The position numbers and the translations under genes were made by a program. A DNA stretch of 43,998 nucleotides, taken from assembly GCA_050186825.1 (NCBI GenBank), contig JBFWYD010000031.1:1-43998 (forward strand), in the 5' to 3' direction. Source of the stretch: Planctomycetota bacterium (GTDB lineage Bacteria > Planctomycetota > J058). How positions within the stretch are numbered: position 1 is the first letter of the stretch; each line of letters opens with the position of its first letter. The notes beneath the pieces are model-generated. The model was not told the origin of the DNA and did no database searches. It worked only from the letters and a program-made list of their open reading frames with translations. Positions 43 through 36,540 of this stretch are shown here, in pieces.

Positions 43-425
43 ACGTACGCGAACAGCTACGTGGCCGCCAGGGGCCGAAGGCCCGGCGAGTGGGCTGCGA
101 ATCTCTCCGAGCGTGGGCGCCGACAGTCGCCCTCGGATGCCGCCGCGTGTCTCGTCCCCGGCGGAGGGGACCAAGGTCCCGCGAGTGACCGACGAGCGGC
201 TGCGCAAGCTCGAGCGAACCAGTGGCGCAGGGGACCCGGAAGCAGAGGGTGCCCTGCTCCTGCAGCGACTGCGCGCGGGAGCGCGGCTGGACTGGCGCGC
301 CTGCGGCGCTGCGTGATCCCGTGGGCGCTCGGCCATGAGCACGACCGCCCAACGCGGAGGCCCCGCCCAGGCCTCTGATCCTTCACACGAGGGCTGCTAG
401 AGTCCCGCCCCCGGGGGGACCCTTC

Positions 426-2243
426 GTGAGCAACCTCACCGCGTCGATCCTGGCCAACGACCTCGAGGGGCTCACGGCCGCGCTCTCGGGGGCGAAGCCC
501 CACGAGCTGGGGAGCGCGTTCCAGATGGCCGCGCAGCGCGAGGGGACCTGTCCGCTCCTGCGCGCCCTGCTCGAGGCGGGCGTCGAGGAGCGGCAGGTCG
601 GCTACGGGCTGAGCCAGGCCTGCGAGCGCGGGCTGCAGGAGAACGTGGCCGCGATCCTCGCGGCGCGGCCCGGGATCCGGGTGGGCAACCGCAAGGGCGA
701 CGGGCCGCTCTACCAGGCCGCCCGGCGCGGCGACCTCGCGCTGGTGGAGCTGCTGCTCGGCGCGGGCGACGCGGAGCCCCTCGGCCACCTCGGCGAGGCC
801 GACCACGAGCAGGCGCCCGATGGTTGGCACCCGCTCCTGGCGGCGATCGAGGCCGGTGCGCCCGAGGTGGTCACGCGCCTGCTCGCGGCCGGCTGCGACC
901 CGAACTTCGCCACCCGCCGCCAGCGGAGCCCGCTCGACCTGGCCCGCGCGCTCGGGAACGAGGCGGTCGTGCGCGCGCTCGAGCGGGGCGGCGCGCGCCC
1001 GCTCGACCCGGCCTGGCTCGACCTCCAGGGCGCGGCCCGGAGCGGGGCCGTGGCGCGGGTGCAGGAGCTGATCCCCGCCGCGAGCGAGGAGGAGCTCGCC
1101 GAGGCGCTCTGGAGCGCGCTCCTCGGCGACCACGAGCCCGTCGTGGAAGCCCTGATCGCGCGCGGCCTGCCGCCGGAGCGGCTGACGCACGCCTTCTCCC
1201 AGGCGGTGCGGCTCTCGCGCTTCGCCGGGGCCGAGGCGCTGCTCGCCGCCGGGGCCGACCTGAACGGCCCCAACGAGCAGGGCAAGACCGCCCTCTACTG
1301 GGCGGCCGGCTTCGACGCCGCCGACGGGGTCCGCTGGCTGGCCGCGCGCGGCGCCGACCTCGAGGCCGTGGACCGCGACGGGGAGACCGCCCTGCATCGC
1401 GCCTGCGACCGTGGCTGCCGCCAGGCGGTCGAGGCCCTCCTGGCCGCCGGCGCCAACGTCAAGGCCAAGGACGCGCGCGGCAAGACGCCGGCCGCCTTCG
1501 CCAAGGACTACCCGGAGCTCAAGGCCCTGCTCAAGGCGGCGGGCGCGGCCCCGGCCTCGCCCGCCGCGGCCAAGCGCACGCTCAAGAAGAAGCTCGCCGG
1601 CCTGGCCCGCGAGGCGCATCCGCTCAAGACCTCGAGCAAGCCCGGTCCGCCCCGCGGCTCGCGCGTGGGCGGCCTCCCCTTCCTGCCCGCGGACGACCCC
1701 TGGCCGGTGTGCGCGACCTGCGCGCGCCCGCTGACCTTCTTCCTCCAGCTCGACCTCGACGACCTCCCGCTCCAGTTCGACGCGACCGGGCTGCTGCAGC
1801 TCTTCCGCTGCAGCGGCTGCGCTCCCGCCGCGCCTGCGGCCAAGGAGCAGCTCCTGCGCCGGCTGAGCGCGAGCGAGGGGGAGCGGCGCGCGGCGCCCGA
1901 AGGGACCAAGGTCCTCCCGCTCCGCACGATCACCGGCGCCAAGAAGCCCAAGCCCGACCTCCCCCGCCGCCCCGAGGACCACGACCAGCCTGTCCTCGGC
2001 CTCGAGCTCGACGTGCACGCCGAGCTCTGCCTCGCAGGCGACAAGCTCGGCGGCTGGCCGCACTGGATCCAGGACGCCTCCTGGCCCCTGGCCCCGCTGA
2101 GCCAGGCCCGCTGCGACCGCCTCCTCCTCCAGCTCGACACCGGCGGCGCGCTCGGCGACGAGCTGGGCGACGGCGGGATCGGCTTCCTGCTCTCCGCCGC
2201 GGCGGCGCCGGAGGAGGTCGTGTTCGTGTGGCAGTGCCTGTGA
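426..2243 (+). CDS. ankyrin-repeat protein with C-terminal DUF1963 (YwqG-like) domain
   Basis: 605-aa ORF with GTG start. The N-terminal ~370 aa carry repeated ankyrin signatures (G.TPL..A...G....V..LL..GAD.N). The C-terminal ~230 aa carry DUF1963-like motifs (GGLPFLP..DPWP.C..C..PLTFFLQLDLDDLP ... LLQLFRC..C ... KLGGWPHWIQD ... GDGGIGFLL). The protein-like composition contrasts with a junk antisense ORF. Confidence 0.8.
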   Translation: MSNLTASILANDLEGLTAALSGAKPHELGSAFQMAAQREGTCPLLRALLEAGVEERQVGYGLSQACERGLQENVAAILAARPGIRVGNRKGDGPLYQAARRGDLALVELLLGAGDAEPLGHLGEADHEQAPDGWHPLLAAIEAGAPEVVTRLLAAGCDPNFATRRQRSPLDLARALGNEAVVRALERGGARPLDPAWLDLQGAARSGAVARVQELIPAASEEELAEALWSALLGDHEPVVEALIARGLPPERLTHAFSQAVRLSRFAGAEALLAAGADLNGPNEQGKTALYWAAGFDAADGVRWLAARGADLEAVDRDGETALHRACDRGCRQAVEALLAAGANVKAKDARGKTPAAFAKDYPELKALLKAAGAAPASPAAAKRTLKKKLAGLAREAHPLKTSSKPGPPRGSRVGGLPFLPADDPWPVCATCARPLTFFLQLDLDDLPLQFDATGLLQLFRCSGCAPAAPAAKEQLLRRLSASEGERRAAPEGTKVLPLRTITGAKKPKPDLPRRPEDHDQPVLGLELDVHAELCLAGDKLGGWPHWIQDASWPLAPLSQARCDRLLLQLDTGGALGDELGDGGIGFLLSAAAAPEEVVFVWQCL

Positions 2244-2525
2244 GGGAGGGCACCTCCCTGCGCGAGCTCGAGCGACGCTGCGCCTCGGGCGCCGCGGAGG
2301 ACCGAGGCTGCCTTCCATGCGGAGCGGGTCCGCCTCGGAGTCCTCGCCGGAGCGGCTCGAGCTCGCGGCCTTCCTGGGCCCCCAGCGGCTCGGCGAGCGT
2401 TCGGCGGCGATCCGATGGCGCTGCGCCGGGAGACGGCCCAGGCCTCGATCCGAGTCGGCGCTTCGATCGGGAAGGAGCTGCTGGGGGCTCTGCCGCGGTC
2501 CTGACGACTCGGGGAGTGGCTTCGC

Positions 2526-2855
2526 CTACGCTCCGAGCAGTTCGGTCGCCTCTGCGTCGCTCAGCTCCTCAGCCGATTTTTCGAGGAGCAGCGCCGCGAG
2601 TTGCATCGGCTGGACCGTGACCCCGGAGCGCTCGCGAACACCGGCGGCGAGATGCTCGAGGCGCTCGAGCGTGCGCGGAGCGAGGGGCACGAGCCGTCGC
2701 TCCGTCCAGCTTGGATCGGTCGCCCTCCCCCCGCCCGCGGGGACCCGAAACCGCGCCTCGATCGCTGCGCTGAGCTCCAAGGCACCGAAGTAGCCGCCGG
2801 TGGAGGTGACCTTTCCGCGTCGCTTCGCGCCGAGGCCCTTGGCGATCTTGTTCAT
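2526..2855 (-). CDS. hypothetical small protein (109 aa)
   Basis: ATG at 2855-2853 preceded by a locally AT-richer stretch (caatatagatcg). The balanced composition (MNKIAKGLGAKRRGKVTSTGGYFGALELSAAIEARF...) contrasts with Arg/Gly/Pro-rich junk in the other frames. It is the only believable part of the 535-aa tracker ORF 2526..4133. Confidence 0.4.
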   Translation of the reverse strand: MNKIAKGLGAKRRGKVTSTGGYFGALELSAAIEARFRVPAGGGRATDPSWTERRLVPLAPRTLERLEHLAAGVRERSGVTVQPMQLAALLLEKSAEELSDAEATELLGA

Positions 2856-2983
2856 GCGCTTGGCCACGCCGATCAATATAGATCGCGCGCCGACCGCTGC
2901 CCAGGGCGAGGGCTCACTCTGCAACCCATCACCCCAAGTCGCTAGGCTCGGGCGCGCGAGCGAGGAGCGTCGGCCTGAGCCTC

Positions 2984-3295
2984 TTGTTCGAGATCGTCTA
3001 CTGGCTGTTCGTCCCCTTCGCGGGGGTGGCCCTGTTCGGGGCGCTGTTCGCGGCGAGCTGGCTCCAGGAGCGGATCGGTCCCCGCCCGACCCGGGCGCTC
3101 GTGCTCCTGACCGGACTGGGGATCCTGACCACGGGCTGCCTGCTCTCCGGCCGTCCCGGCGAGCTCGGCCTCGGCGGCTACGGGGTGCTCCTGGCGGGGA
3201 ACATCCTCGGGATCGTCCTGGTCGGCCTGGCCGTGGTCCGCTCCGACCACTCCCTGCCCGACCCGCCGGAGCGAAAGGGCCCCCCCCGGGCGTGA
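2984..3295 (+). CDS. small integral membrane protein (3 predicted TM helices)
   Basis: 103 aa with a TTG start. It has three strongly hydrophobic segments (IVYWLFVPFAGVALFGALFAASWL; ALVLLTGLGILTTGCLL; GVLLAGNILGIVLVGLAVV) separated by charged loops, typical of a real small membrane protein. Confidence 0.4.
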   Translation: MFEIVYWLFVPFAGVALFGALFAASWLQERIGPRPTRALVLLTGLGILTTGCLLSGRPGELGLGGYGVLLAGNILGIVLVGLAVVRSDHSLPDPPERKGPPRA

Positions 3296-3341
3296 GGGCA
3301 GGGCTGGTCCGGTGTCCTAGCGGCAGGCGGCGAGGCAGCGC

Positions 3342-4111
3342 GTGACCGAGTCGAGCCCCCCGGCCCCCGAAGGCGTGGACTGGTTCCAGCCCGCCCGGAT
3401 CACCCCGCGGATCTTCCAGAACGGCTACATCACGGCGCGCCAGGGCGAGCGGCTGCTCGGGCTCGGCGTCACGCACCTGCTCAACCTCGACCTGCCCTAC
3501 GGCACGAGCGGGATCGTGATGCCGGCAGGGCTCACGGTGTGGGAGCTCCTGCTCCACGACATGGCGCCCATGTCGCCAGATGACGCTCGGCGAGTGGTCG
3601 CGCTCTTCCAGCGCGCCCTCGATCTCGAGCAGGGGCGGATCTACGTCCACTGCAACGCGGGCCTGAGCCGCTCGCCCACGGCCGTATGGCTCTACCTCGT
3701 CGCGGCTGGCTGGGAGCCGGACGAGGCCCGTCGCACCATCGGCGCCGCGGCCAAGCACCTCGACGCGCCCGACCCGATCCTGGTGGACCGACTCGACCTC
3801 GACGACCTGCGCGCCTGGCCCGAACCCCGCGCTGGGAGCTGTGGCGGCAGGGGGCGGGCACCTACCCGAACGCGCTGGCGGCCTTCGGGCGCGCAGCGCC
3901 CGGGGGCCGCCAGCTCGACGCAAGCGGTGTGGCCGAGCGCAGCTCGGCCTCCGCGCCAGCGAACCTGCTCGAGGTCTGCGAGGACGAGGGGACCGCGCGA
4001 GCGGCCCTGGAACGGCTCGAGGCGAAGCAGCGCGAGTACGAGGCGCGGGGCTTCCCGCATCGTGTCCGCTTCTGGGTCGAAGCCTCGCGACCGCCCAAGG
4101 AGACGACATGA
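3342..4111 (+). CDS. dual-specificity (Cys-based, CX5R) protein phosphatase. The reading frame switches from frame 0 to frame +2 near 3826-3845, and the C-terminal ~90 aa end at TGA 4109-4111 (frameshift, authentic or a sequencing error)
   Basis: The N-terminal 165 aa contain the DUSP/PTP P-loop VHCNAGLSRSPT (HCxxGxxRS/T) in a DUSP-like context. Frame 0 then runs stop-free as Arg/Pro junk to 4937. A protein-like sequence (WELWRQGAGTYPNALAAFG...LERLEAKQREYEARGFPHRVRFWVEASRPPKETT) resumes in frame +2 and ends exactly at an ATGA overlap with the next gene. Confidence 0.55.
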
Positions 4112-4791
4112 GGGTCCTGGCCATTGGCGACATCCACGGCTGCTCCGCCGCCCTCGACGCCCTGCTCGAGGCGGTCCAGCCCGGCCCCGACGACCAGGTG
4201 ATCCCGCTCGGCGACTACGTGGACCGCGGGCCCGACAGCAAGGGCGTGATCGAGCGCCTGATCGCGCTCCAGGGCGCCACGAACCTGATCCCCCTGCTCG
4301 GCAACCACGACCAGATGATGCTCGACGCCCGGAGCGGCGACGCCGACAAGCTCTGGTGGATCGACGACTACGGGCGCAAGACCCTGGCCTCCTACGCGAC
4401 GCCCTTCGAGCGCGGCTCGCTCGAGACCGTGCCGCCCGAGCACTGGACCTTCCTCGCGGGCTGCCGCGACCTCCTCGAGACCGACACCCACGTGTTCGTC
4501 CACGCCAACCTCTACCCCGACCTCGAGCTCGCCGACCAGCCCGTGTTCATGACCCGCTGGGAGTCCCTGAGCGCGGACCTCTCCGCGGCGCACTGCTCGG
4601 GCAAGACCATGGTCTGCGGACACACCAGCCAGAAGTCGGGCCGGCCCCTCGACCTCGGCCACGCGGTGTGCATAGACACCTACGCCCACGGCGGCGGCTG
4701 GCTCTCCTGCCTCGACGCCTCCAGCGGTCGGCTGTGGCAGGCGAGCCAGGCGGGCGAGCTCTGGACGGGTTGGCTGCACGAGCGCTGCTGA
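4108..4791 (+). CDS. PPP-family Ser/Thr metallophosphatase (bacterial ApaH/PrpA-like calcineurin-fold phosphoesterase)
   Basis: 227 aa starting MRVLAIGDIHGC. It carries GDYVDRG and GNHD(Q) motifs plus downstream His residues (VHANLYPD, GHTS) in canonical PPP motif order. An AAGGAG RBS lies 6 nt upstream of the ATG, and the ATG overlaps the upstream TGA (ATGA). Confidence 0.85.
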   Translation: MRVLAIGDIHGCSAALDALLEAVQPGPDDQVIPLGDYVDRGPDSKGVIERLIALQGATNLIPLLGNHDQMMLDARSGDADKLWWIDDYGRKTLASYATPFERGSLETVPPEHWTFLAGCRDLLETDTHVFVHANLYPDLELADQPVFMTRWESLSADLSAAHCSGKTMVCGHTSQKSGRPLDLGHAVCIDTYAHGGGWLSCLDASSGRLWQASQAGELWTGWLHERC

Positions 4792-5120
4792 GCGCCTCTG
4801 CCTACCCGTCGAAGTTCCAGTCGGCAGGCAGCTCTCGAGCTCGACCGCTGCGTAGGTCCCCGAGCGCAGCTGAGCCAGGGCGGCGCGGAAACGCCCCCAC
4901 CCGTCAGCCGCGACCCAGATCGTCGTCTCTCCGTTGAAGCCGCCCAACCGCGCCTCGGCGCGCAGGCGCAGGTCGCCAGCGCTCGGGGTCCCGTCGGGAC
5001 CAGCTTCGAGCGGCTCCAGCACGAGCTCGGCGTCGGGCCCAGATGGATGCAGGGGAGGTGGAAGCGAGCGGGTCACCGCCTGAGCCTAGCGTGAGCCACG
5101 GCGGTCGAGCTCGCAGCCCC

Positions 5121-5188: not shown

Positions 5189-6241
5189 TTAGCCGACCGA
5201 GGACGCCGCGAGGCTCTGGTGGCGCGAGCGGGTGTCGCGCGCCTTGGCCGCGGGCTGCTCGACCGGGGCCGGCTTGGCCGGGGCCGGCTTGGCGGGCGGC
5301 TCCGTGGCCGCCGGCTGCTGGTCCTCGGCCTCGCCGGTCGCGGCCTCGAGCTCGAGGTCCTCGAGCTCGTCCTCGTCGTCGTCGCCCTTCTTCCCGCCCT
5401 CGCGGCTGCGCTTGTTGTTCGCCTTGATCAGCTGCTGGGCCTTGTTGAAGGTGATCGGGGCCACGATCGGCTCGTGGCGCCCCTTGACGTGGATGTCCCC
5501 GAAGTGGACGCGGCCGATGTAGGTGTCGTTCTTGAGGATCCAGGAGACCCCCGCCCGCGACCACTGCTTGCTCCGCCGCGTCCTGAGGCCCTGCTCGTCG
5601 AGGAGCTTGATCAGCCGCTTCATGCTGCGCAGGCGCAGGTACTCGCGAAAGATCAGCTTGACGACCTCGGCCTCCACCTCGTCCGGCACCAACATCACGC
5701 CCTCGCTCGAGCGCTTGTCGTAGTCGCGCCGGTAGCCGTAGGGAGCGGGGCCGCTCTGGTGCTTGCCCTGGCGGGCCCCCTCCTCGCGACCCTTCAGCAG
5801 GCGCTGCGCGATCTCGCGCTTGCGCTCCACCTCGTCGCTCTTGCGCGCCGCGACCTTCTTCGGCTGGCGCGCCTTGTAGTCCTCGACGATCGCCCGGAGC
5901 TGGCGGGCCGTGTCGTCGTTGGCGACGAGCACCCGCTTCCCGGCGTTCCGCAGCTCCTCGACGGGGTCGAAGGTGAGCGTGCTGCACAGCCCGCGGAGGC
6001 GGCAGCCGGAGACGATCAAGACCGCCTCCCAGTCGCTCTCCTCCATGTCGTCCAGGATGTTGACGAGCCCTGCGCGGGTGTCCTGGGTGGGGGTCAACCC
6101 GTGGTCGGTGTGGACCTTCTCCAGCGCGAGCCCGGTGTGGGAGGCGAAGGCCTCCAGTCTTCGAGTCTGCTCCTCGAGCGAGGGGAAGCCCCCTTCCTCC
6201 TGCTCGAGGTAGCTGACTCGGGCGTAGGCGACGACCTTCAC
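5189..6241 (-). CDS. serine recombinase. It has a resolvase/invertase-type catalytic domain plus a large-serine-recombinase 'recombinase' domain, lacks the zinc-ribbon/coiled-coil tail, and ends in a Lys/Pro/Ala/Asp-Glu-rich C-terminus
   Basis: The N-terminus MKVVAYARVSYLEQ matches the YxRVS(T)xxQ catalytic serine motif, and the downstream R..L.......D.L.V...RL.R block is present (TRAGLVNILDDMEESDWEAVLIVSGCRLRG). The recombinase-domain signatures APYGYRRD and ILKNDTYIGR follow. The protein is 350 aa with an acidic/KPAPA tail. The GTG start lies 7 nt after the MamK-like gene's stop. Confidence 0.8.
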   Translation of the reverse strand: MKVVAYARVSYLEQEEGGFPSLEEQTRRLEAFASHTGLALEKVHTDHGLTPTQDTRAGLVNILDDMEESDWEAVLIVSGCRLRGLCSTLTFDPVEELRNAGKRVLVANDDTARQLRAIVEDYKARQPKKVAARKSDEVERKREIAQRLLKGREEGARQGKHQSGPAPYGYRRDYDKRSSEGVMLVPDEVEAEVVKLIFREYLRLRSMKRLIKLLDEQGLRTRRSKQWSRAGVSWILKNDTYIGRVHFGDIHVKGRHEPIVAPITFNKAQQLIKANNKRSREGGKKGDDDEDELEDLELEAATGEAEDQQPAATEPPAKPAPAKPAPVEQPAAKARDTRSRHQSLAASSVG

Positions 6242-6248
6242 CGGTCGG

Positions 6249-7337
6249 TTAGCGCAGCTGCTCCCAGGCCTCGACCGGCATGTCGTAGGCGATCTTGAGC
6301 GCCCCGTTCGCGCCGGCGTAGACGGGCTCCTGCACCGGACGGACCTTGCCGCCGCCGTAGCCCTGGAGCGCCTCCTCGAGCGCGCGGTCGAGGCCGTGGA
6401 TGCGGCTGCCGCCGCCGGCCAGGATCACGTTGTTGCGCAGGCGGTCCTGGAACTCGGGGTCGAAGGTCGAGATCAGGCGGTCGACGGCCTCGACGATCGG
6501 CTCGACGATCCGGCTGCAGCCCTTGCGGACCTCGGCGGTCACGTCGAAGGCCTTGGGGCGGCCGCGCACGGGGAAGGTGACCATCACGGGCTCGGCGGCC
6601 TCGGTCACGAAGGCGTGCTTCTCCTTGATCTCGCGCACCATGTTGATGTTGAAGCTGGCGTCGGGGCAGCGGCCCTTGAACAGCTCGAACAGCTGGTGGT
6701 CGATGAAGTCGCCGGCCTGGGTCAGCGTGACCTGGTCGTCCTCGTCGGGCATCGAGCCCTTCATCCGGCAGAGGTCGGTGGTCCCGGCGCCGATGTCGAT
6801 CACCAGGCAGTCGTGGAGCCGGTCCATCCCGTAGGCGACCGAGAAGGGCTCGCTGCAGATCACCACCGAGTCGAGCACCTCACGGGCGGCCTCGATGATC
6901 GACTGCTTGTTGTGGATCGAGGCCTGCGCGGGGCAGCCGATCACGCCGTAGACGAGCTGGCCGGGCTTGGGGCGGGCCAGGCTGACCGCGTGCTGGATCA
7001 GGGCGCGCGCGGCCTCGAGGTTGGCGCTCACGTCCTCGCTCGGGGCGCCGGTCGAGTCGGAGTGCTTGATCACGCCCTTCTCGAGCGGGCGGTAGAGGTC
7101 GAGGGCCAGGCGGTGCGCCATGGCGTCGTCCCCGAACAGCACGTCGCGCTGGAGCAGCTTGCGCGAGACCACGTCGCGCGGGTAGCCGACGATGCTGCTG
7201 ACCGTCTCCCGCACGCCGTTGCTGGCCGAGATCGAGGTCCGCGAGGTGCCGAGGTCGATGCCGACGTAGAGGATCGAGTCGCTCTCGCCCTTCCGGTAGT
7301 TCAGGCGGTCCTGCGCCGCGCTCTTCTGCTTCTCCAT
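6249..7337 (-). CDS. actin-fold ATPase, MamK-like (MreB/ParM/MamK superfamily)
   Basis: Actin-fold signature motifs appear in order: phosphate-1 VGIDLGTSRTSI, connect-1 GVIGCPAQAS, phosphate-2 LVIDIGAGTTDLC, and adenosine/connect-2 ILAGGGSRIHGLDRALEEAL. Local blocks (IVGYPRD, CSEPFSVAYGMDRL, DEDDQVTLTQAGDFIDHQL) resemble MamK more than MreB or ParM, as far as I can recall. The start is ATG 7337-7335 (M27 of the tracker ORF) with a GGGGGAAG RBS 6 nt upstream. Confidence 0.85.
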   Translation of the reverse strand: MEKQKSAAQDRLNYRKGESDSILYVGIDLGTSRTSISASNGVRETVSSIVGYPRDVVSRKLLQRDVLFGDDAMAHRLALDLYRPLEKGVIKHSDSTGAPSEDVSANLEAARALIQHAVSLARPKPGQLVYGVIGCPAQASIHNKQSIIEAAREVLDSVVICSEPFSVAYGMDRLHDCLVIDIGAGTTDLCRMKGSMPDEDDQVTLTQAGDFIDHQLFELFKGRCPDASFNINMVREIKEKHAFVTEAAEPVMVTFPVRGRPKAFDVTAEVRKGCSRIVEPIVEAVDRLISTFDPEFQDRLRNNVILAGGGSRIHGLDRALEEALQGYGGGKVRPVQEPVYAGANGALKIAYDMPVEAWEQLR

Positions 7338-7392: not shown

Positions 7393-8166
7393 CTACGCCC
7401 GACGGCGGAGGCCAAGGTTCTGGTCGATCAGTCCGTTGAGCAGGCCACCCCCCCGGCGGCGCGCTCCCGAATTCGTTCCCAGCCCGCTGGCGGCGGGCGG
7501 CGGCGGCGGCGGCTCAGGGACCGCCGCTGGCGCGGGCGGCGGCTCCGCCCCGCGCGGCTCGGCCGCGTGGGTCCGCCCCGCCGCGGTCGACTGGCCCGGG
7601 TTGCGGAGCTCCACGTTGGCCCGCACCAGGCCCGCCAGGAGGCCCCCGCCGCCGCGCGGCATGGGCCGCGTCGTGTGTCCCGCGCCCTGGCTGGGCGCGC
7701 CCAGGCCCGCGGGCCGGCTCGGCGCCGCAGCCAGCGGCGTCGCGGCGACCGGCGCAGCGGCGACCGGCCCGTGCCCGAGCGGCGCGGCGACCGGCCCGTG
7801 CCCGAGCGGCGCGGCGACCGGCCCGTGCCCGAGCGGCCCGGCGACCGGCGCCGCGGCGGCGCGCTCGAGCCGCGCGGCGGCGCGCTCGAGCCTGGCCGCG
7901 ACCGCGGCCAGGCCCTCGCGCTCGCTGGCGCGCTCGGCCAGGCGCGCCTGCGCCTCGGCCAGCCGCTGGGCCAGCGCGTCGCGCTCGGCGCGCAGCCGGT
8001 CCAGCTCCGCCTGCGTCGGGCCCCCGCGGAGCTCGGCGCGCAGGCGCGCCACCTCCTCGCGCAGCCGGTTCCGCTCCTCCGAGAGGCGGGCGATGATCTC
8101 CACCGCGGCCCGCGGCAAGTCGCGGGTGCGGGAGAGGATCGCGGGGCTGCGCTCGAGGGTGGCCAC
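7393..8166 (-). CDS. coiled-coil plus Ala/Pro-rich repeat protein (candidate filament-associated adaptor)
   Basis: A GTG start follows a GGAG that overlaps the upstream stop (TGAGGAGCGAACACGTG). The N-terminal ~110 aa form a heptad-like coiled coil (ERNRLREEVARLRAELR...LAEAQARLAERASEREGLAAVAARLERAAARLERAAA). Then come three tandem GHGPVAAPL repeats, an Ala/Pro linker, and two copies of a GGGLL.GL...N..LR motif. Only the 3' ~775 nt of the 509-aa tracker ORF look protein-like. Confidence 0.5.
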   Translation of the reverse strand: MATLERSPAILSRTRDLPRAAVEIIARLSEERNRLREEVARLRAELRGGPTQAELDRLRAERDALAQRLAEAQARLAERASEREGLAAVAARLERAAARLERAAAAPVAGPLGHGPVAAPLGHGPVAAPLGHGPVAAAPVAATPLAAAPSRPAGLGAPSQGAGHTTRPMPRGGGGLLAGLVRANVELRNPGQSTAAGRTHAAEPRGAEPPPAPAAVPEPPPPPPAASGLGTNSGARRRGGGLLNGLIDQNLGLRRRA

Positions 8167-8177
8167 GTGTTCGCTCC

Positions 8178-9221
8178 TCAGCGGCCCTTGTGGCCGGGGC
8201 CGAAGCCGAAGCCGAAGGCGCCGAACTCCTGCTTGGCCCGGCGGACGGTGCTCCGCCGCGACTCGTCGGGCTCGGCGGCCTTGGCCGGCGCGGGCGCGGC
8301 GGGCTCTTCGGCCACGACCTCTGGCTCGGGTTCGGCCTTGGGCTCGAGCTCGGCCACGCGCTCGGCCAGCTGCGCCCGCTCCAGGGTCAGCTCGGCCAGC
8401 TGCTTGGCGTCGGCCTCGCGGGCCTGGTGCAGCTCGGCCGCCTCGCGGCGGGCCGCCTCGGCCTGGGCGCGCAGCGCGGTCAGGTCCTCGGCCAGGCTCG
8501 CGCAGCGCTTGAGGTAGGTGTCGCGCTCCTCGCGGAACTGGTCGCGCTCGCGGCGCATCCCGTCGCGCTCCTGGCGGAGCTGCTCGCGCTCGCTCGCCAT
8601 GGCGTCGCGCTCGTCCACGGTCCGGTCGCGCTCGTCTCGGAACTGCTCCAGGTCGTGGCGCAGGGCCTCGACCTCGCTCTCGAGCCGGTCGCGCTCGCGC
8701 TCGAGCTTGTCCCGCTCGGACTGGATCGAGCCCAGGTTCCCCTCGAGGTCCGCGTTGCGCCCCAGCTCCTCGTCCAGCCGCTCGCGCGCGCTGGTCTGGA
8801 GCCGCTTGAGGTTCTTCTCCAGCGAGCCGATCTGCGCGCGCAGCCGGGCCCGCTCGGCCAGCAGCTCGCGGATGTCCTGCTCCTGGAGCTTCTCGCCCGC
8901 CTCGCGGCCGAGGGCCTGGCACACCTCGTCGACCGCCGCCTGCAGCCGGCCGCGCTCGGCCTCGACCAGGCCCTTGGCGTGCTCGAGCTCCTTCTTCTCC
9001 TTGCCGAGCTTGGCGTTCTCCTGGAGCAGCCGCTCCACCCGCCGCTGGGCCGCGTCCTCGTCGCTGCTCGCGCCCTCCTGCTTGAGCTTCCCCAGGAGCT
9101 CGATCAGCTGGCTGCGCTCGATCACGCGCACGTTGTCGACCTTGGCCTTGCGCAGCTCGCGCACGTTCAGCGTGCGGGTGGCGGAGCGCAGCGCGCCGGA
9201 CAGCTCGTCGTCGAAGCTCAT
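8178..9221 (-). CDS. long coiled-coil protein with acidic Pro/Glu-rich C-terminal region and a GFGFGPG terminal motif
   Basis: 347 aa from ATG 9221-9219 with a strong RBS GGAGGAGGAAGG. About 250 aa of continuous heptad-rich E/R/L/Q/D coiled coil (ERDKLERERDRLESEVEALRHDLEQFRDERDR...) are followed by EPKAEPEPEVVAEEPAAPAPAKAAEPDES and RRAKQEFGAFGFGFGPGHKGR. The upstream 139 codons of the tracker ORF are Arg/Ala/Pro junk. Confidence 0.6.
   Translation of the reverse strand: MSFDDELSGALRSATRTLNVRELRKAKVDNVRVIERSQLIELLGKLKQEGASSDEDAAQRRVERLLQENAKLGKEKKELEHAKGLVEAERGRLQAAVDEVCQALGREAGEKLQEQDIRELLAERARLRAQIGSLEKNLKRLQTSARERLDEELGRNADLEGNLGSIQSERDKLERERDRLESEVEALRHDLEQFRDERDRTVDERDAMASEREQLRQERDGMRRERDQFREERDTYLKRCASLAEDLTALRAQAEAARREAAELHQAREADAKQLAELTLERAQLAERVAELEPKAEPEPEVVAEEPAAPAPAKAAEPDESRRSTVRRAKQEFGAFGFGFGPGHKGR

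Positions 9222-18429: not shown

Positions 18430-18433
<4 letters not shown>
16487..18433 (+). CDS. DUF3754-like (TMEM143-like) membrane-associated protein. The core ends near nt 17700 and is followed by a ~240-aa low-complexity tail encoded by the second copy of the dispersed repeat
   Basis: The core of ~400 aa has a conserved-looking central hydrophobic hairpin (LLAVPFKLFLLPIAFLVTAFYGGKTVLDYAKIRSSYVTALAEHLYSITLASNRAVLGRL). The family call is from recollection only. The ORF continues stop-free through unit A, (GGGCAC)6 encoding TGTGTG, unit B and (GACTCG)n encoding (SD)n, to TGA 18431-18433, which overlaps the TTG start of the downstream kinase. Confidence 0.55.
17735..18400. repeat. composite dispersed repeat (copy 2): unit A (~17735-17950), inverted-repeat arms (~17897-17940 and ~18076-18127), (GGGCAC)6 (~17985-18020), unit B (~18073-18200), and a (GACTCG)n-type array (~18190-18370)
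   Basis: Direct nucleotide comparison with 10540-11430; the reading frame relative to the element is the same as in copy 1. Confidence 0.9.
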
Positions 18434-21621
<3,188 letters not shown>

Positions 21622-35010: not shown

Positions 35011-36540
35011 GTGAGCCAGGAGCTGCCAGGCATCCCGCTCGAGGTGCTGGAGCGAATCGGCGCGGGCGGGATGGGCGAGGTCTACCGCGCCCGCGACGCG
35101 CAGGGCCGCGCGCTCGCGCTCAAGCTCCTGCTGCGCGGGCAGGGCGAGGGCGACCCGACCGTGCGCCGACGCCGCTTCGAGCGCGAGGCCGCGGCCCTCG
35201 AGCGCGTCCAGCACCCCAACGTCGTCGGCGTGGTCGCGCGCGGCGACTCTCCTCGCGGCCCCTGGCTGGCCATGCCCTTCCTCGAGGGCGAGCCGCTCGA
35301 GGCCAAGCTCCCGCTCCCGATCCCCGCCGCGCTCGAGCTCGCGCTCCAGCTCGGCGCGGGGCTCCGGGCCGCGCACGCGGTGGGCGTCCTGCACCGCGAC
35401 CTCAAGCCGGACAACGTCGTGGTGTGTCGGGACGGGCGCTACGTGCTCGTGGACTTCGGGCTGACCAAGGACGTCGAGGGCCAGGGTCAGTCCGGGACCC
35501 TGACCCGCACCGGGATGCTCCAGGGCACGCCCGGCTACTGGGCGCCCGAGCAGGCCGCGGGCGAGGGGCGACGCGTGAGCGTCGAGACCGACGTCTACGG
35601 CTACGGCGCGACGCTCTACGCGGCGCTGACCGGCGTCCCGCCGGCCGACGGTCAGACCCTGCTCGAGCTGCTGGTCGCGACCCAGGAGCGACCGCCGCGG
35701 GCGCCGCGCGAGCTGCGCCCCGAGGTCCCCGCCTGGCTCGAGGCCTTCGTGCTCCGCTGCCTGGAGAAGAGCCCGAGCGCGCGCTACCCGAGCATGGAGG
35801 CCGCCCTGGAGGCGCTCCACGCGGGGATCGCGGGGCAGGCGCCCACCTGGCGCTGCTCAGGCTGCGGCGAGCCGCCCCGCGGCGGGGTCACGCCGCTCGT
35901 CTGCGTGTGCGGCAAGCAGTACCACCCGCTCTGCCTGCGCACCCAGCCCTGCGCGACCCCCGGCTGCGGAGGCGGCGGTCGCGCCAGCGGACGGGCGAGC
36001 CCCGGCCCCGGCCTGGTGGTGGACCCCGAGCCCGAGCCCCAGGAGCGCGCGCCCTCGCCGCTCCGGCGTCTGTTCGCCAACCCCGAGCGGGTCCAGACCG
36101 CGGTCTTCCTCTCGGCGATCGCCCTCGGCACCCTCCCCGGCCTGGCGCTCCTCCACGCCCACTGGGGCGCCAGCGCGGGCGGCGCCGAGCTCCGCGAGGC
36201 CGCGACGTTCCTCGCCGTCGGCGCCGTCGCGGGCGGGGTCCTGGCGGTGATCGCCCTGGCCGCCCTGGAGTGGCTCGGCGACCTGGTCCGCCAGCGCGAC
36301 GACCCCAAGATCCGCCTGACCTGCCTGACGATCCTGGGGAGCGCCCTCCTGGCCAGCGCCCTGGTCGCGGGCGAGAGCTGGCAGGCAGGCCGCAGCCCCA
36401 CTCAGGTGCTGGTGGTCGGGGTGCTCAGCTTCGTGGGCACCTTCGTGCTCGTGGGCCTGTTCATGGTCAGCGTCGTCGGCCAGGCGCTGGTCGCGCTGGT
36501 CGAGGCGCTGCGGGCGCTGCTCCGGGGCCGACGGCGCTGA
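35011..36540 (+). CDS. Hanks-type Ser/Thr kinase with a C-terminal Cys-cluster (zinc-ribbon-like) and a polytopic TM tail
   Basis: Kinase motifs: GAGGMGEVY, LALKLL, HRDLKPDN, DFGLTKD, GTPGYWAPEQ, DVYGYGATLY. Then WRCSGCGEPPRGGVTPLVCVCGKQYHPLC...CATPGCGGGG, and then 3-4 hydrophobic helices. Confidence 0.8.
   Translation: MSQELPGIPLEVLERIGAGGMGEVYRARDAQGRALALKLLLRGQGEGDPTVRRRRFEREAAALERVQHPNVVGVVARGDSPRGPWLAMPFLEGEPLEAKLPLPIPAALELALQLGAGLRAAHAVGVLHRDLKPDNVVVCRDGRYVLVDFGLTKDVEGQGQSGTLTRTGMLQGTPGYWAPEQAAGEGRRVSVETDVYGYGATLYAALTGVPPADGQTLLELLVATQERPPRAPRELRPEVPAWLEAFVLRCLEKSPSARYPSMEAALEALHAGIAGQAPTWRCSGCGEPPRGGVTPLVCVCGKQYHPLCLRTQPCATPGCGGGGRASGRASPGPGLVVDPEPEPQERAPSPLRRLFANPERVQTAVFLSAIALGTLPGLALLHAHWGASAGGAELREAATFLAVGAVAGGVLAVIALAALEWLGDLVRQRDDPKIRLTCLTILGSALLASALVAGESWQAGRSPTQVLVVGVLSFVGTFVLVGLFMVSVVGQALVALVEALRALLRGRRR

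Follow-up and report, generated by a model that had tools for sequence, protein, structure and literature searches.

The window analyzed here is a 43,998-nt stretch of Planctomycetota DNA. On its forward strand, between positions 3342 and 4937, a gene for a Cys-based dual-specificity phosphatase (DUSP) runs into a gene for a PPP-family metallophosphatase, and the first of these changes reading frame without meeting a stop codon. A sequence-only reading of this locus had offered four explanations for the switch: a recent frameshift pseudogene, a sequencing error, a programmed frameshift, or a small separate gene encoded in the second frame. It had also proposed that the two phosphatases form a translationally coupled dephosphorylation module. 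We asked which of these explanations fits the locus, using codon-position statistics, orthologues, structure models, and independent assemblies.

Reading frames and gene products at the phosphatase locus

Codon-position GC and homology place the coding signal in frame 0 (positions p with p mod 3 = 0) from 3342 to approximately 3823, in frame 2 from approximately 3824 to 4111, and in frame 1 from 4108 to 4791. The GC3 of frame 0 is 0.9 to 1.0 up to about 3820; from there to about 4100, frame 2 has a GC3 of 0.87 to 0.93, and frame 1 reaches 1.0 over 4108 to 4790. Viterbi segmentation of codon-position GC positions the switch at 3823/3824, at the CCCC run (3825 to 3828) to which the sequence-only reading had drawn attention. 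Together with the GC3 change and the homology described below, this confirms the switch that had been proposed at about 3830. According to the stop map, frame 0 continues out of frame from 3830 to 4937 (~369 codons) and crosses the entire PPP gene before its first stop, a TGA at 4935 to 4937, as expected from the earlier description of about 1.1 kb of stop-free junk. This tail is rich in Arg and Pro, and its GC3 drops to 0.3 to 0.8. In the rest of the 44-kb window, a Viterbi scan revealed no further evident stop-free frame switch. The NCBI assembly records no protein product for 3296 to 4107.

The frame-0 part (3342 to 3829, GTG start at 3342) encodes a DUSP-type Cys phosphatase catalytic domain, in agreement with the initial assignment. 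Its P-loop, HCNAGLSRS (3648 to 3674, Cys codon 3651 to 3653), fits the HCx5R(S/T) signature, and the motif VHCNAGLSRS (3645 to 3674) is invariant in 13 orthologues. The domain matches Pfam families PF22784 (PTP-SAK; 32.7 bits, cut-off 27) and PF22785 (28.6 bits, cut-off 27), and scores 28.5 bits against PF00782 (DSPc), under the cut-off of 33.5 for that family. Upstream of the P-loop, Asp73 in an HDM motif, a candidate for the general-acid Asp, is invariant in the orthologue alignment. By BLASTP, the frame-0 translation aligns with residues 2 to 151 of the orthologue P0002 (E = 8e-76, 70% identity), and the last conserved frame-0 codon is a Trp at 3816 to 3818. P0002 was modelled with AF2 in place of the window protein (pLDDT 91, pTM 0.90). 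Foldseek matched this model to DUSP15, DUSP22, and DUSP5 (E of about 1e-6 to 3e-7), with target-normalised TM-scores of 0.73, 0.71 to 0.75, and 0.72 to 0.78, respectively. No DUSP orthologue was found in species-representative genomes, where an alignment scan gave distant P-loop matches only; the gene context of the orthologues was taken from metagenome contigs.

The frame-2 part (3830 to 4111, ending with the TGA at 4109 to 4111) belongs to the same ancestral protein as its C-terminal module, and the translation of this part aligns with residues 154 to 210 of P0002 (BLASTP, E = 3e-14). In the AF2 models, this module is a beta-beta-alpha-beta unit of about 55 amino acids. A domain search on this part, as the sequence-only reading had suggested, returned no Pfam match, and a PDB fold match was likewise not found. 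As far as the predicted structures show, these proteins form a bacterial DUSP subfamily that has not been characterised and whose conserved beta-beta-alpha-beta C-terminal module has no known relative.

Immediately downstream, frame 1 contains an intact gene for a PPP/ApaH-like metallophosphatase of 227 amino acids (4108 to 4791). Its designation as a canonical PPP metallophosphatase was upheld by the motifs GDIHG, GDYVDRG, and GNHD and by a PF00149 match of 58 bits (cut-off 21.5). The protein has more than 6000 homologues at E<=1e-20, and its best PDB matches are the T. brucei ApaH-like protein 2qjc (1.6e-11), ApaH chains, and lambda phosphatase. None of the NCBIfam equivalogs was reached (ApaH, 55 versus 176 bits; PrpA/B, 47 and 37 versus ~330 bits), so that a role as Ser/Thr protein phosphatase is only one possibility for its predicted activity, beside one resembling Ap4A hydrolase.

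The ATG of the PPP gene (4108 to 4110) overlaps the frame-2 TGA in an ATGA, and an AAGGAG Shine-Dalgarno sequence, read directly from the DNA, lies at 4097 to 4102, 5 nt upstream of the ATG; it falls within the final codons (K-E) of the ancestral DUSP frame. The ATGA at 4108 to 4111 serves frame 2 only; the ORF that starts at 3342 passes there in frame 0 and stops at 4937. Of the proposed translational coupling, the ATGA and the ribosome-binding site are real, but only in the repaired or ancestral frame, and the two ORFs as they stand do not share the overlapping stop and start of a coupled pair.

Origin of the frame switch

None of the 13 DUSP orthologues (205 to 225 amino acids) is frameshifted. 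In 12 of them, one continuous ORF spans both parts, which answers positively the question of whether orthologues would show a single gene; the thirteenth, P0008, is interrupted by an in-frame TAG. Between the invariant Trp and the motif RWELW, the window has 11 nt at 3819 to 3829, CCCGAACCCCG, including the CCCC run, compared to 12 nt (four codons) in the orthologues. The aligned junction reads W-PEP(P)-RWELW in the window and W-AKAP-RWELW in the orthologues. The window thus lacks an intact full-length DUSP ORF through a 1-nt deletion in this interval, and one added C restores an ORF of 256 amino acids. In the P0002 model, the shift position falls in the linker just before the first strand of the C-terminal module. 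The ratio of C-module identity to N-domain identity is 0.63 against the orthologues and 0.61 among the orthologues themselves. The region past the shift is as conserved as expected, indicating that the break is recent.

The single-ORF orthologues, the 11 versus 12 nt, and the absence of extra divergence all support the first of the four explanations: a once-continuous DUSP gene was very likely broken by a real, recent 1-nt deletion and is now most probably a young pseudogene. The ancestral gene would have encoded a protein of ~225 amino acids, consisting of an atypical DUSP-type catalytic domain, a short linker, and the beta-beta-alpha-beta module, with a stop codon that overlapped the PPP start (ATGA). 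One base would then have been lost within 3819 to 3829, in or next to the C run, in this landfill Planctomycetota population. This loss would have left the catalytic domain in frame 0, the C-terminal module in frame 2, and a run of ~369 nonsense codons that extends over the PPP gene. At best, the product would be the catalytic domain followed by junk. The PPP gene would presumably also have lost termination-reinitiation coupling and would depend on the AAGGAG site in front of it. In a separate event, the 99-nt hairpin repeat described below would have entered the C-terminal module as an in-frame loop insertion of 31 codons. An intact minority allele may exist in the population and would be compatible with the assembly-level data.

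Loss of the C-terminal module could also be tolerated or even advantageous, with a catalytic domain that still works, and P0008 could be a parallel case; we consider this rather unlikely, though the best of the alternatives. The catalytic residues and the entire DUSP fold lie 5' of the shift, and homologues consisting of the catalytic domain only are on record (P0014, 143 amino acids; P0015, 163 amino acids), so some activity might survive. The TAG of P0008, which comes from a marine lineage, lies five codons past the shift point with intact sequence downstream, a mild coincidence with a chance of ~6% under random placement along the gene. Reassignment of TAG in the P0008 lineage was considered and rejected, since TAG terminates four of eight neighbouring genes. 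The two independent breaks lie no more than about 6 codons from the domain junction, but a pair of events is not enough to demonstrate selection. Moreover, the window allele, unlike P0008, has no nearby stop, and its ~369 junk residues would probably harm folding or stability. Preservation is as good past the break as ahead of it in both lineages, which fits very recent events or function equally.

An error in sequencing or assembly would mean that the true genome has one more C and an intact gene coupled to the PPP gene. The break does coincide with or adjoin short C runs, the DNA has 76% GC, and the source is a metagenome-assembled genome. However, Illumina HiSeq 2x150 sequencing seldom miscalls a 4-base homopolymer. 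The NCBI genome and the Logan contigs of two runs agree base for base: L021 and L022 (SRR27751815 and SRR27751816) match the window without a single mismatch along 3.8 and 2.6 kb, the shift site included, and both runs are Illumina HiSeq 2x150 data (bioRxiv 10.1101/2024.05.30.596742). No assembly yields a near-identical intact protein, and none was found in a collection of 5.8 billion proteins, in which the neighbouring PPP protein and the protein P0016 (see below) each have two NCBI accessions. An identical PPP protein is encoded by a second NCBI metagenome-assembled genome (accessions MGE0710060.1 and MGE4145660.1). Because the two independent Illumina run assemblies match the window completely across the site, and the rest of the 44 kb is without an evident frame break, we regard an error as improbable.

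Slightly less credible still is a programmed -1 ribosomal frameshift, or another form of recoding, through which catalytic domain and C-terminal module would be made as one protein and coupling to the PPP gene restored. Moving from frame 0 to frame 2 does amount to a -1 shift, the frame past the switch has been kept in full, a highly stable hairpin follows it, and the stop codon of P0008 lies close to this junction, followed by sequence that is intact. Nevertheless, no X XXY YYZ heptamer occurs in 3800 to 3835, and the frame-0 codons at the shift site are TGG CCC GAA CCC CGC GCT, and a back-slip from either CCC codon would pair with ACC or GCC, mispaired at the first position. The hairpin at 3874 to 3914 begins 46 nt past the C run, compared to 5 to 9 nt for a stimulator, and belongs to the repeat that is absent from the orthologues; on both grounds it was rejected as a frameshift stimulator. 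Rfam returned no match at gathering thresholds in the window as a whole, and none at E<=1 between 3700 and 4200. Without a slippery heptamer, a suitably placed structure, or a shifted orthologue among the 13, programmed frameshifting is very unlikely. A +1 slip at CCC_C into frame 1 was also rejected. Frame 1 has no stop from 3667 until inside the PPP gene, so such a slip would give a DUSP-PPP fusion, but the GC3 of frame 1 is 0.5 to 0.77 over 3830 to 4100, and it is frame 2 that holds the conserved sequence. As a point against the young-pseudogene reading, the preserved frame-2 sequence would also fit ongoing translation by recoding.

An independent small gene in frame 2 can be dismissed: an ORF of 141 amino acids does span 3686 to 4111 with coding-like GC3 after 3824, but no start codon is available close to the switch, the sole start of the ORF (ATG 3686) sits 140 nt inside the DUSP domain where frame-2 GC3 is a non-coding 0.4 to 0.6, and its conserved part corresponds to residues 154 to 210 of single-ORF orthologues.

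The DUSP break is thus most probably an ordinary recent gene break, not programmed recoding, and little is at stake for the finding itself. It illustrates that, in high-GC DNA, a simple 1-nt deletion can mimic recoding or a hidden gene when an off-frame is open.

The hairpin repeat and the phosphatase neighbourhood

The repeat element within the C-terminal module (3866 to 3964, 99 nt) is an in-frame insertion with a net gain of 31 codons. It contains two hairpins, each with a GCA loop: the first (3874 to 3914) has a 19-bp stem, the longest hairpin in the 44-kb window, and the second (3931 to 3949) an 8-bp stem. The element folds at -73.5 kcal/mol (z = -4.8). A second copy (L019:3622-3720), identical at 95 of 99 nt (96%), was found inside P0016, a gene unrelated to the DUSP gene and located on a different contig. 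Both copies come from one assembly (GCA_050250455.1), and their flanks are unrelated. Both copies lie on codon boundaries and add 31 codons to their genes, and the repeat corresponds to a 31-residue gap in all 13 DUSP orthologues and all five P0016 homologues. CGAAC occurs as a direct repeat at both ends of both copies, where a duplication is indistinguishable from element sequence. Beyond these two directly observed copies, assembly breakpoints suggest a third. No additional copy was found in the 44-kb window, exact-word scans of JGI metagenomes gave no matches, and a search with the repeat peptide gave no candidates. We tentatively propose, at somewhat less than an even chance, that the repeat is a mobile family like the Rickettsia palindromic elements (RPEs) in free-living, high-GC Planctomycetota, inserting in frame and adding loops of about 31 residues. 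A less likely addition to this mobile-repeat reading is that the junction between catalytic domain and C-terminal module is a recurrent break or recoding point, used independently in the window and in the marine P0008.

Conservation of gene order does not support a dedicated dephosphorylation module. A PPP gene is absent beside the DUSP gene in seven of seven DUSP-orthologue loci, and a DUSP gene is absent in all four PPP-homologue loci. Hanks kinases are present in the window as had been noted, but rather than several there are two genes with a Pkinase domain (18430 to 21621 and 35011 to 36540), which belong to other transcription units at distances of 14 and 31 kb. Judged by these neighbourhoods, the pair of phosphatases appears to be a lineage-specific arrangement and not a conserved system.

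Comparison with known systems

The window DUSP family resembles the atypical DUSPs (DUSP15, DUSP22, and DUSP5; PF22784, PF22785, and PF00782) in its HCxxGxxR(S) P-loop, upstream HDM Asp, and fold. It differs from them by the extra C-terminal module of ~55 amino acids, and the window copy is in addition frameshifted. The PPP protein shares its motifs and a strong Metallophos match with lambda phosphatase, PrpA, PrpB, ApaH, and 2qjc, and at 227 amino acids it is similar in size to lambda phosphatase and PrpA/B. In contrast to PrpA/B and ApaH, it stays under every NCBIfam equivalog cut-off. As at programmed -1 sites, including those of dnaX and the IS3/IS1 transposases, two overlapping frames encode one conserved protein in the -1 direction; unlike at those sites, there is no slippery heptamer and no properly spaced stimulator, and the shift is not conserved.

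For the repeat, the basis of comparison is formed by the RPEs and intragenic MITEs (review PMC10969869). Similar to RPEs, it measures ~100 nt, is strongly palindromic, lies in frame in unrelated genes of one genome, and encodes a loop peptide. It differs in its host, a high-GC Planctomycetota metagenome-assembled genome rather than Rickettsia, and in the two copies seen directly. If the mobile-repeat reading is true, it would extend a phenomenon best documented in Rickettsia, and a multi-copy repeat would be a convenient case for studying how repeats drive protein loop insertion outside that genus.

Reading frames across the DUSP-PPP region

The GC content of the window is approximately 72%, so that third-position GC (GC3) reveals the coding frame. 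When codons starting at positions p mod 3 = 0, 1, and 2 are designated frames 0, 1, and 2, GC3 equals 0.9 to 1.0 in frame 0 from the GTG at 3342, where the dual-specificity phosphatase (DUSP) gene starts, to approximately 3820; 0.87 to 0.93 in frame 2 from approximately 3820 to 4100; and 1.0 in frame 1 from 4108 to 4790, across the downstream metallophosphatase (PPP) gene (4108-4791). Viterbi segmentation with seven states, based on GC by codon position, places the first frame switch at 3823/3824, at the CCCC run at 3825-3828. Frame 0 has no stops between 3318 and 4935 in the stop map, while frame 2 closes at 4109-4111 and frame 1 at 4789-4791. The PPP start codon (ATG, 4108-4110) overlaps the frame-2 TGA (4109-4111), and its Shine-Dalgarno sequence is the AAGGAG at 4097-4102, within the last five DUSP codons. 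GC3, the stop map, and direct reading of the sequence thus bear out the layout given in the sequence-only reading, with its frame switch, TGA/ATG overlap, and AAGGAG site.

Frame 1 is open from 3667, giving a false 89-codon N-terminal extension of the PPP gene (316-amino-acid [aa] ORF, 3841-4791, plus strand), and an antisense ORF of 535 aa (2526-4133, minus strand) covers the entire DUSP gene. Both are spurious, as is typical of high-GC DNA, and neither has coding-like GC3. The DUSP gene is preceded on the same strand, after a gap of 46 nt, by a gene for a 103-aa hydrophobic protein (2984-3295, plus strand), whose match to the MFS_1 C terminus is weak (E = 5e-4, under the cutoff). It may represent a small membrane protein or what is left of a transporter.

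The frame-0 part (164 aa) matches PF22784 (PTP-SAK DSP-PTPase; 32.7 bits, cutoff 27) and PF22785, scores slightly under the cutoff for PF00782 (DSPc), and contains the P-loop HCNAGLSRS. The domain search proposed for the frame-2 C-terminal stretch was run and returned zero Pfam matches. The PPP product matches Metallophos (58 bits) and has the motifs GDIHG, GDYVDRG, and GNHD. Among NCBIfam models, it comes closest to ApaH and PrpA/PrpB, with every score far under the cutoff; among solved structures, it comes closest to the Trypanosoma brucei ApaH-like protein 2qjc (1.6e-11), ApaH chains, and lambda phosphatase. The family is very large, with more than 6,000 matches at E ≤ 1e-20. From these similarities, "PPP/ApaH-like metallophosphatase" is a safe designation, and a role as Ser/Thr protein phosphatase is plausible.

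Origin of the frame break

To find orthologues, a conceptual 256-aa protein, obtained by adding one C to the CCCC run, was queried against 5.8 billion proteins. Thirteen orthologues of 205 to 225 aa were found, several of which cover 93 to 95% of the query. The orthologue comparison proposed in the sequence-only reading shows that the orthologues read through both parts as one ORF, with an uninterrupted alignment (...LDLxxLRxW-AxxP-RWELWRRGxKTYPxL...RGFxxxVxxWxEExRP). In the orthologue P0002, the frame-0 piece aligns to residues 2-151 (E = 8e-76) and the frame-2 piece to residues 154-210 (E = 3e-14). The invariant Trp codon (3816-3818) and the RWELW Arg codon (3830-3832) are separated by 11 nt in the window but by four codons in all orthologues, which means that one base is missing within 3819-3829. 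The AlphaFold model of P0002 (pLDDT of 91, pTM of 0.90) has a DUSP fold at residues 1-150, with Foldseek matches to DUSP15, DUSP22, and DUSP5, and a beta-beta-alpha-beta module at residues 154-208, for which a PDB fold search gave no match. The frameshift falls in the three-residue linker between the two.

A sequencing error, one of the origins raised previously, is unlikely. Logan contigs from runs SRR27751816 (L021, spanning window 98-3903) and SRR27751815 (L022, spanning 1341-3903) have zero mismatches to the window, site included. Four-base homopolymers are seldom miscalled in Illumina HiSeq 2x150 sequencing. Both runs are landfill metagenomes sequenced in this way (bioRxiv 10.1101/2024.05.30.596742). 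There are two NCBI accessions each for the neighboring PPP protein and for P0016, an unrelated protein discussed below; the landfill population is thus represented in two or more deposited records. In NCBI GCA_050250455.1 (contig JBFWOT010000064.1, a Planctomycetota bacterium MAG), 3296-4107 has no recorded protein product, and no near-identical intact DUSP protein was found among the 5.8 billion proteins, the best match being 72% identical. Crude as the model is, the Viterbi segmentation of the 44 kb gives no second case in which the frame changes on one strand with no intervening stop, and it is clear that indels are not pervasive in the assembly. We conclude that the 1-nt deletion is genuine.

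A programmed -1 frameshift joining frame 0 to frame 2 has the right direction but is highly improbable. The sequence TGG CCC GAA CCC CGC GCT lacks an X XXY YYZ heptamer, slippage of a single tRNA on either CCC codon leads to GCC or ACC, the nearest strong structure starts 46 nt downstream, an Rfam search gave zero matches, and none of the 13 orthologues is shifted. A separate small gene in frame 2 is excluded, as the stretch corresponds to residues 154-210 of the single-ORF P0002; the sole start, ATG 3686, lies deep within the DUSP domain, where frame 2 is noncoding.

A second break was found in the marine orthologue P0008 (157 aa), which ends at a TAG replacing the conserved Trp of RWEL-W, five codons past the window's frameshift site. 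The TAG is present in a 52-kb Tara scaffold and an independent assembly (L012:5001-5632 and L013:3393-4024). The 52 codons that follow stay in frame and are 88% identical to P0002, as is the sequence preceding the stop. Without the TAG, the ORF in L012 would close with a TAA immediately ahead of the start codon (ATG) of an ADP-ribosylglycohydrolase gene (5633-6520). Reassignment of TAG in this lineage was considered and rejected, since TAG is an ordinary stop in four of eight neighboring genes. In bacteria, it is reportedly common for an in-frame stop to be followed by preserved sequence (PMC7918605). Two recent independent breaks within approximately 6 codons of the domain junction have a chance of approximately 6% under random placement, which is noteworthy but is not evidence of recoding.

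With the 31-residue insertion described below left out, the window is 40% identical to the orthologues in the C-terminal module and 64% in the N-terminal domain. This ratio of 0.63 compares to 0.61 among the orthologues themselves; decay is not detectable, indicating a recent break. The continuous orthologues, the 11 nt in place of four codons, and the undecayed module support the recent frameshift raised as one option in the sequence-only reading: a once-continuous DUSP gene suffered a 1-nt deletion and is now most probably a young pseudogene, beside an intact PPP gene. Ribosomes starting at 3342 would produce the catalytic domain followed by approximately 369 Arg/Pro-rich residues and would pass the PPP start out of frame. 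Consequently, the ATGA stop/start coupling is presumably lost, and the PPP gene probably relies on its own AAGGAG site.

Genomic neighborhood of the two phosphatase genes

The two phosphatase genes are adjacent in this genome, but conservation does not support the suggestion of a dedicated dephosphorylation module. By tblastn, the PPP gene is absent from all seven DUSP-orthologue loci (four lineages), which have other neighbors instead, including DUF5063, ADP-ribosylglycohydrolase, PrkA, SMI1_KNR4, and a sigma-54 activator. Conversely, among PPP homologues on usable contigs, the three closest (66 to 68% identity) are represented by four loci, all without a DUSP gene. The pairing is therefore real but lineage specific. 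Hanks kinases are present in the window, although two rather than "several" (18430-21621 and 35011-36540), 14 and 31 kb from the phosphatases, with many unrelated genes between.

DUF5063 lies directly upstream of the DUSP orthologue in L012 and L013 (one lineage), and an unannotated 184-aa gene takes its place on the contig of orthologue P0005. Among contigs L012, L013, L015, and L017, SMI1_KNR4 and ADP-ribosylglycohydrolase each lie downstream on a single contig, and ParE/RHH is close by on a single one. These neighbors have a conflict-system flavor, which, together with the match to PF22785 ("polymorphic toxin DSP-PTPase"), hints that this DUSP subfamily may not be a housekeeping phosphatase.

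Elsewhere in the window, 426-2243 (plus strand) encodes a 605-aa protein with ankyrin repeats and a DUF1963 domain (precomputed Pfam matches, NCBI record). A MamK-family actin-like protein (6249-7337, minus strand) matches NCBIfam NF040964 (431 bits, cutoff 400) and, more weakly, BeeR. Beside it (5189-6241, 7393-8166, and 8178-9221, all minus strand) are a large serine recombinase and two proteins without a confident Pfam match; one of these two has only a weak, subthreshold match to the APG6_N coiled-coil profile. Magnetosome genes are not evident in the window, and this company is unusual for a MamK-like gene in such a MAG.

A 99-nt in-frame hairpin repeat

The DUSP frame break is ordinary biology; the in-frame hairpin repeat most deserves follow-up. 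The window protein contains 31 residues absent from all 13 DUSP orthologues, and this peptide recurs with 91% identity in the unrelated 362-aa P0016, whose gene lies elsewhere in the assembly, on a different contig. At the nucleotide level, window 3866-3964 and L019:3622-3720 are identical at 95 of 99 nt (96%), with zero gaps, sharp boundaries, and unrelated flanks. All five P0016 homologues lack exactly 31 residues at that point. As the residues are missing in homologues of both proteins, the repeat was inserted into each gene. The two copies are in frame, sit on a codon boundary, and share one reading frame. The repeat folds as two hairpins with GCA loops, of 19 and 8 bp (-73.5 kcal/mol, z = -4.8); the 19-bp stem exceeds every other hairpin in the window in length. 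In the model of the frame-2 piece, most inserted residues form a low-confidence loop (pLDDT of <50 at residues 33-46).

The Logan contigs stop at 3903 and resume at 3935, inside the repeat. If k = 31 is assumed for these assemblies, the last k-mer with the window-specific base 3873 ends at 3903, and the first with the flank base 3965 starts at 3935. Because the L019 copy differs from the window copy at 3948, the break at 3935 would then imply at least a third copy, identical over 3934-3964. The breakpoints thus suggest that the sample contains one or more additional copies of the repeat. Further copies were not found in exact-word scans of JGI metagenomes, and a search for the inserted peptide gave zero candidates. 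In its behavior, the repeat resembles the Rickettsia palindromic elements (RPE) and other intragenic MITEs (reviewed in PMC10969869).
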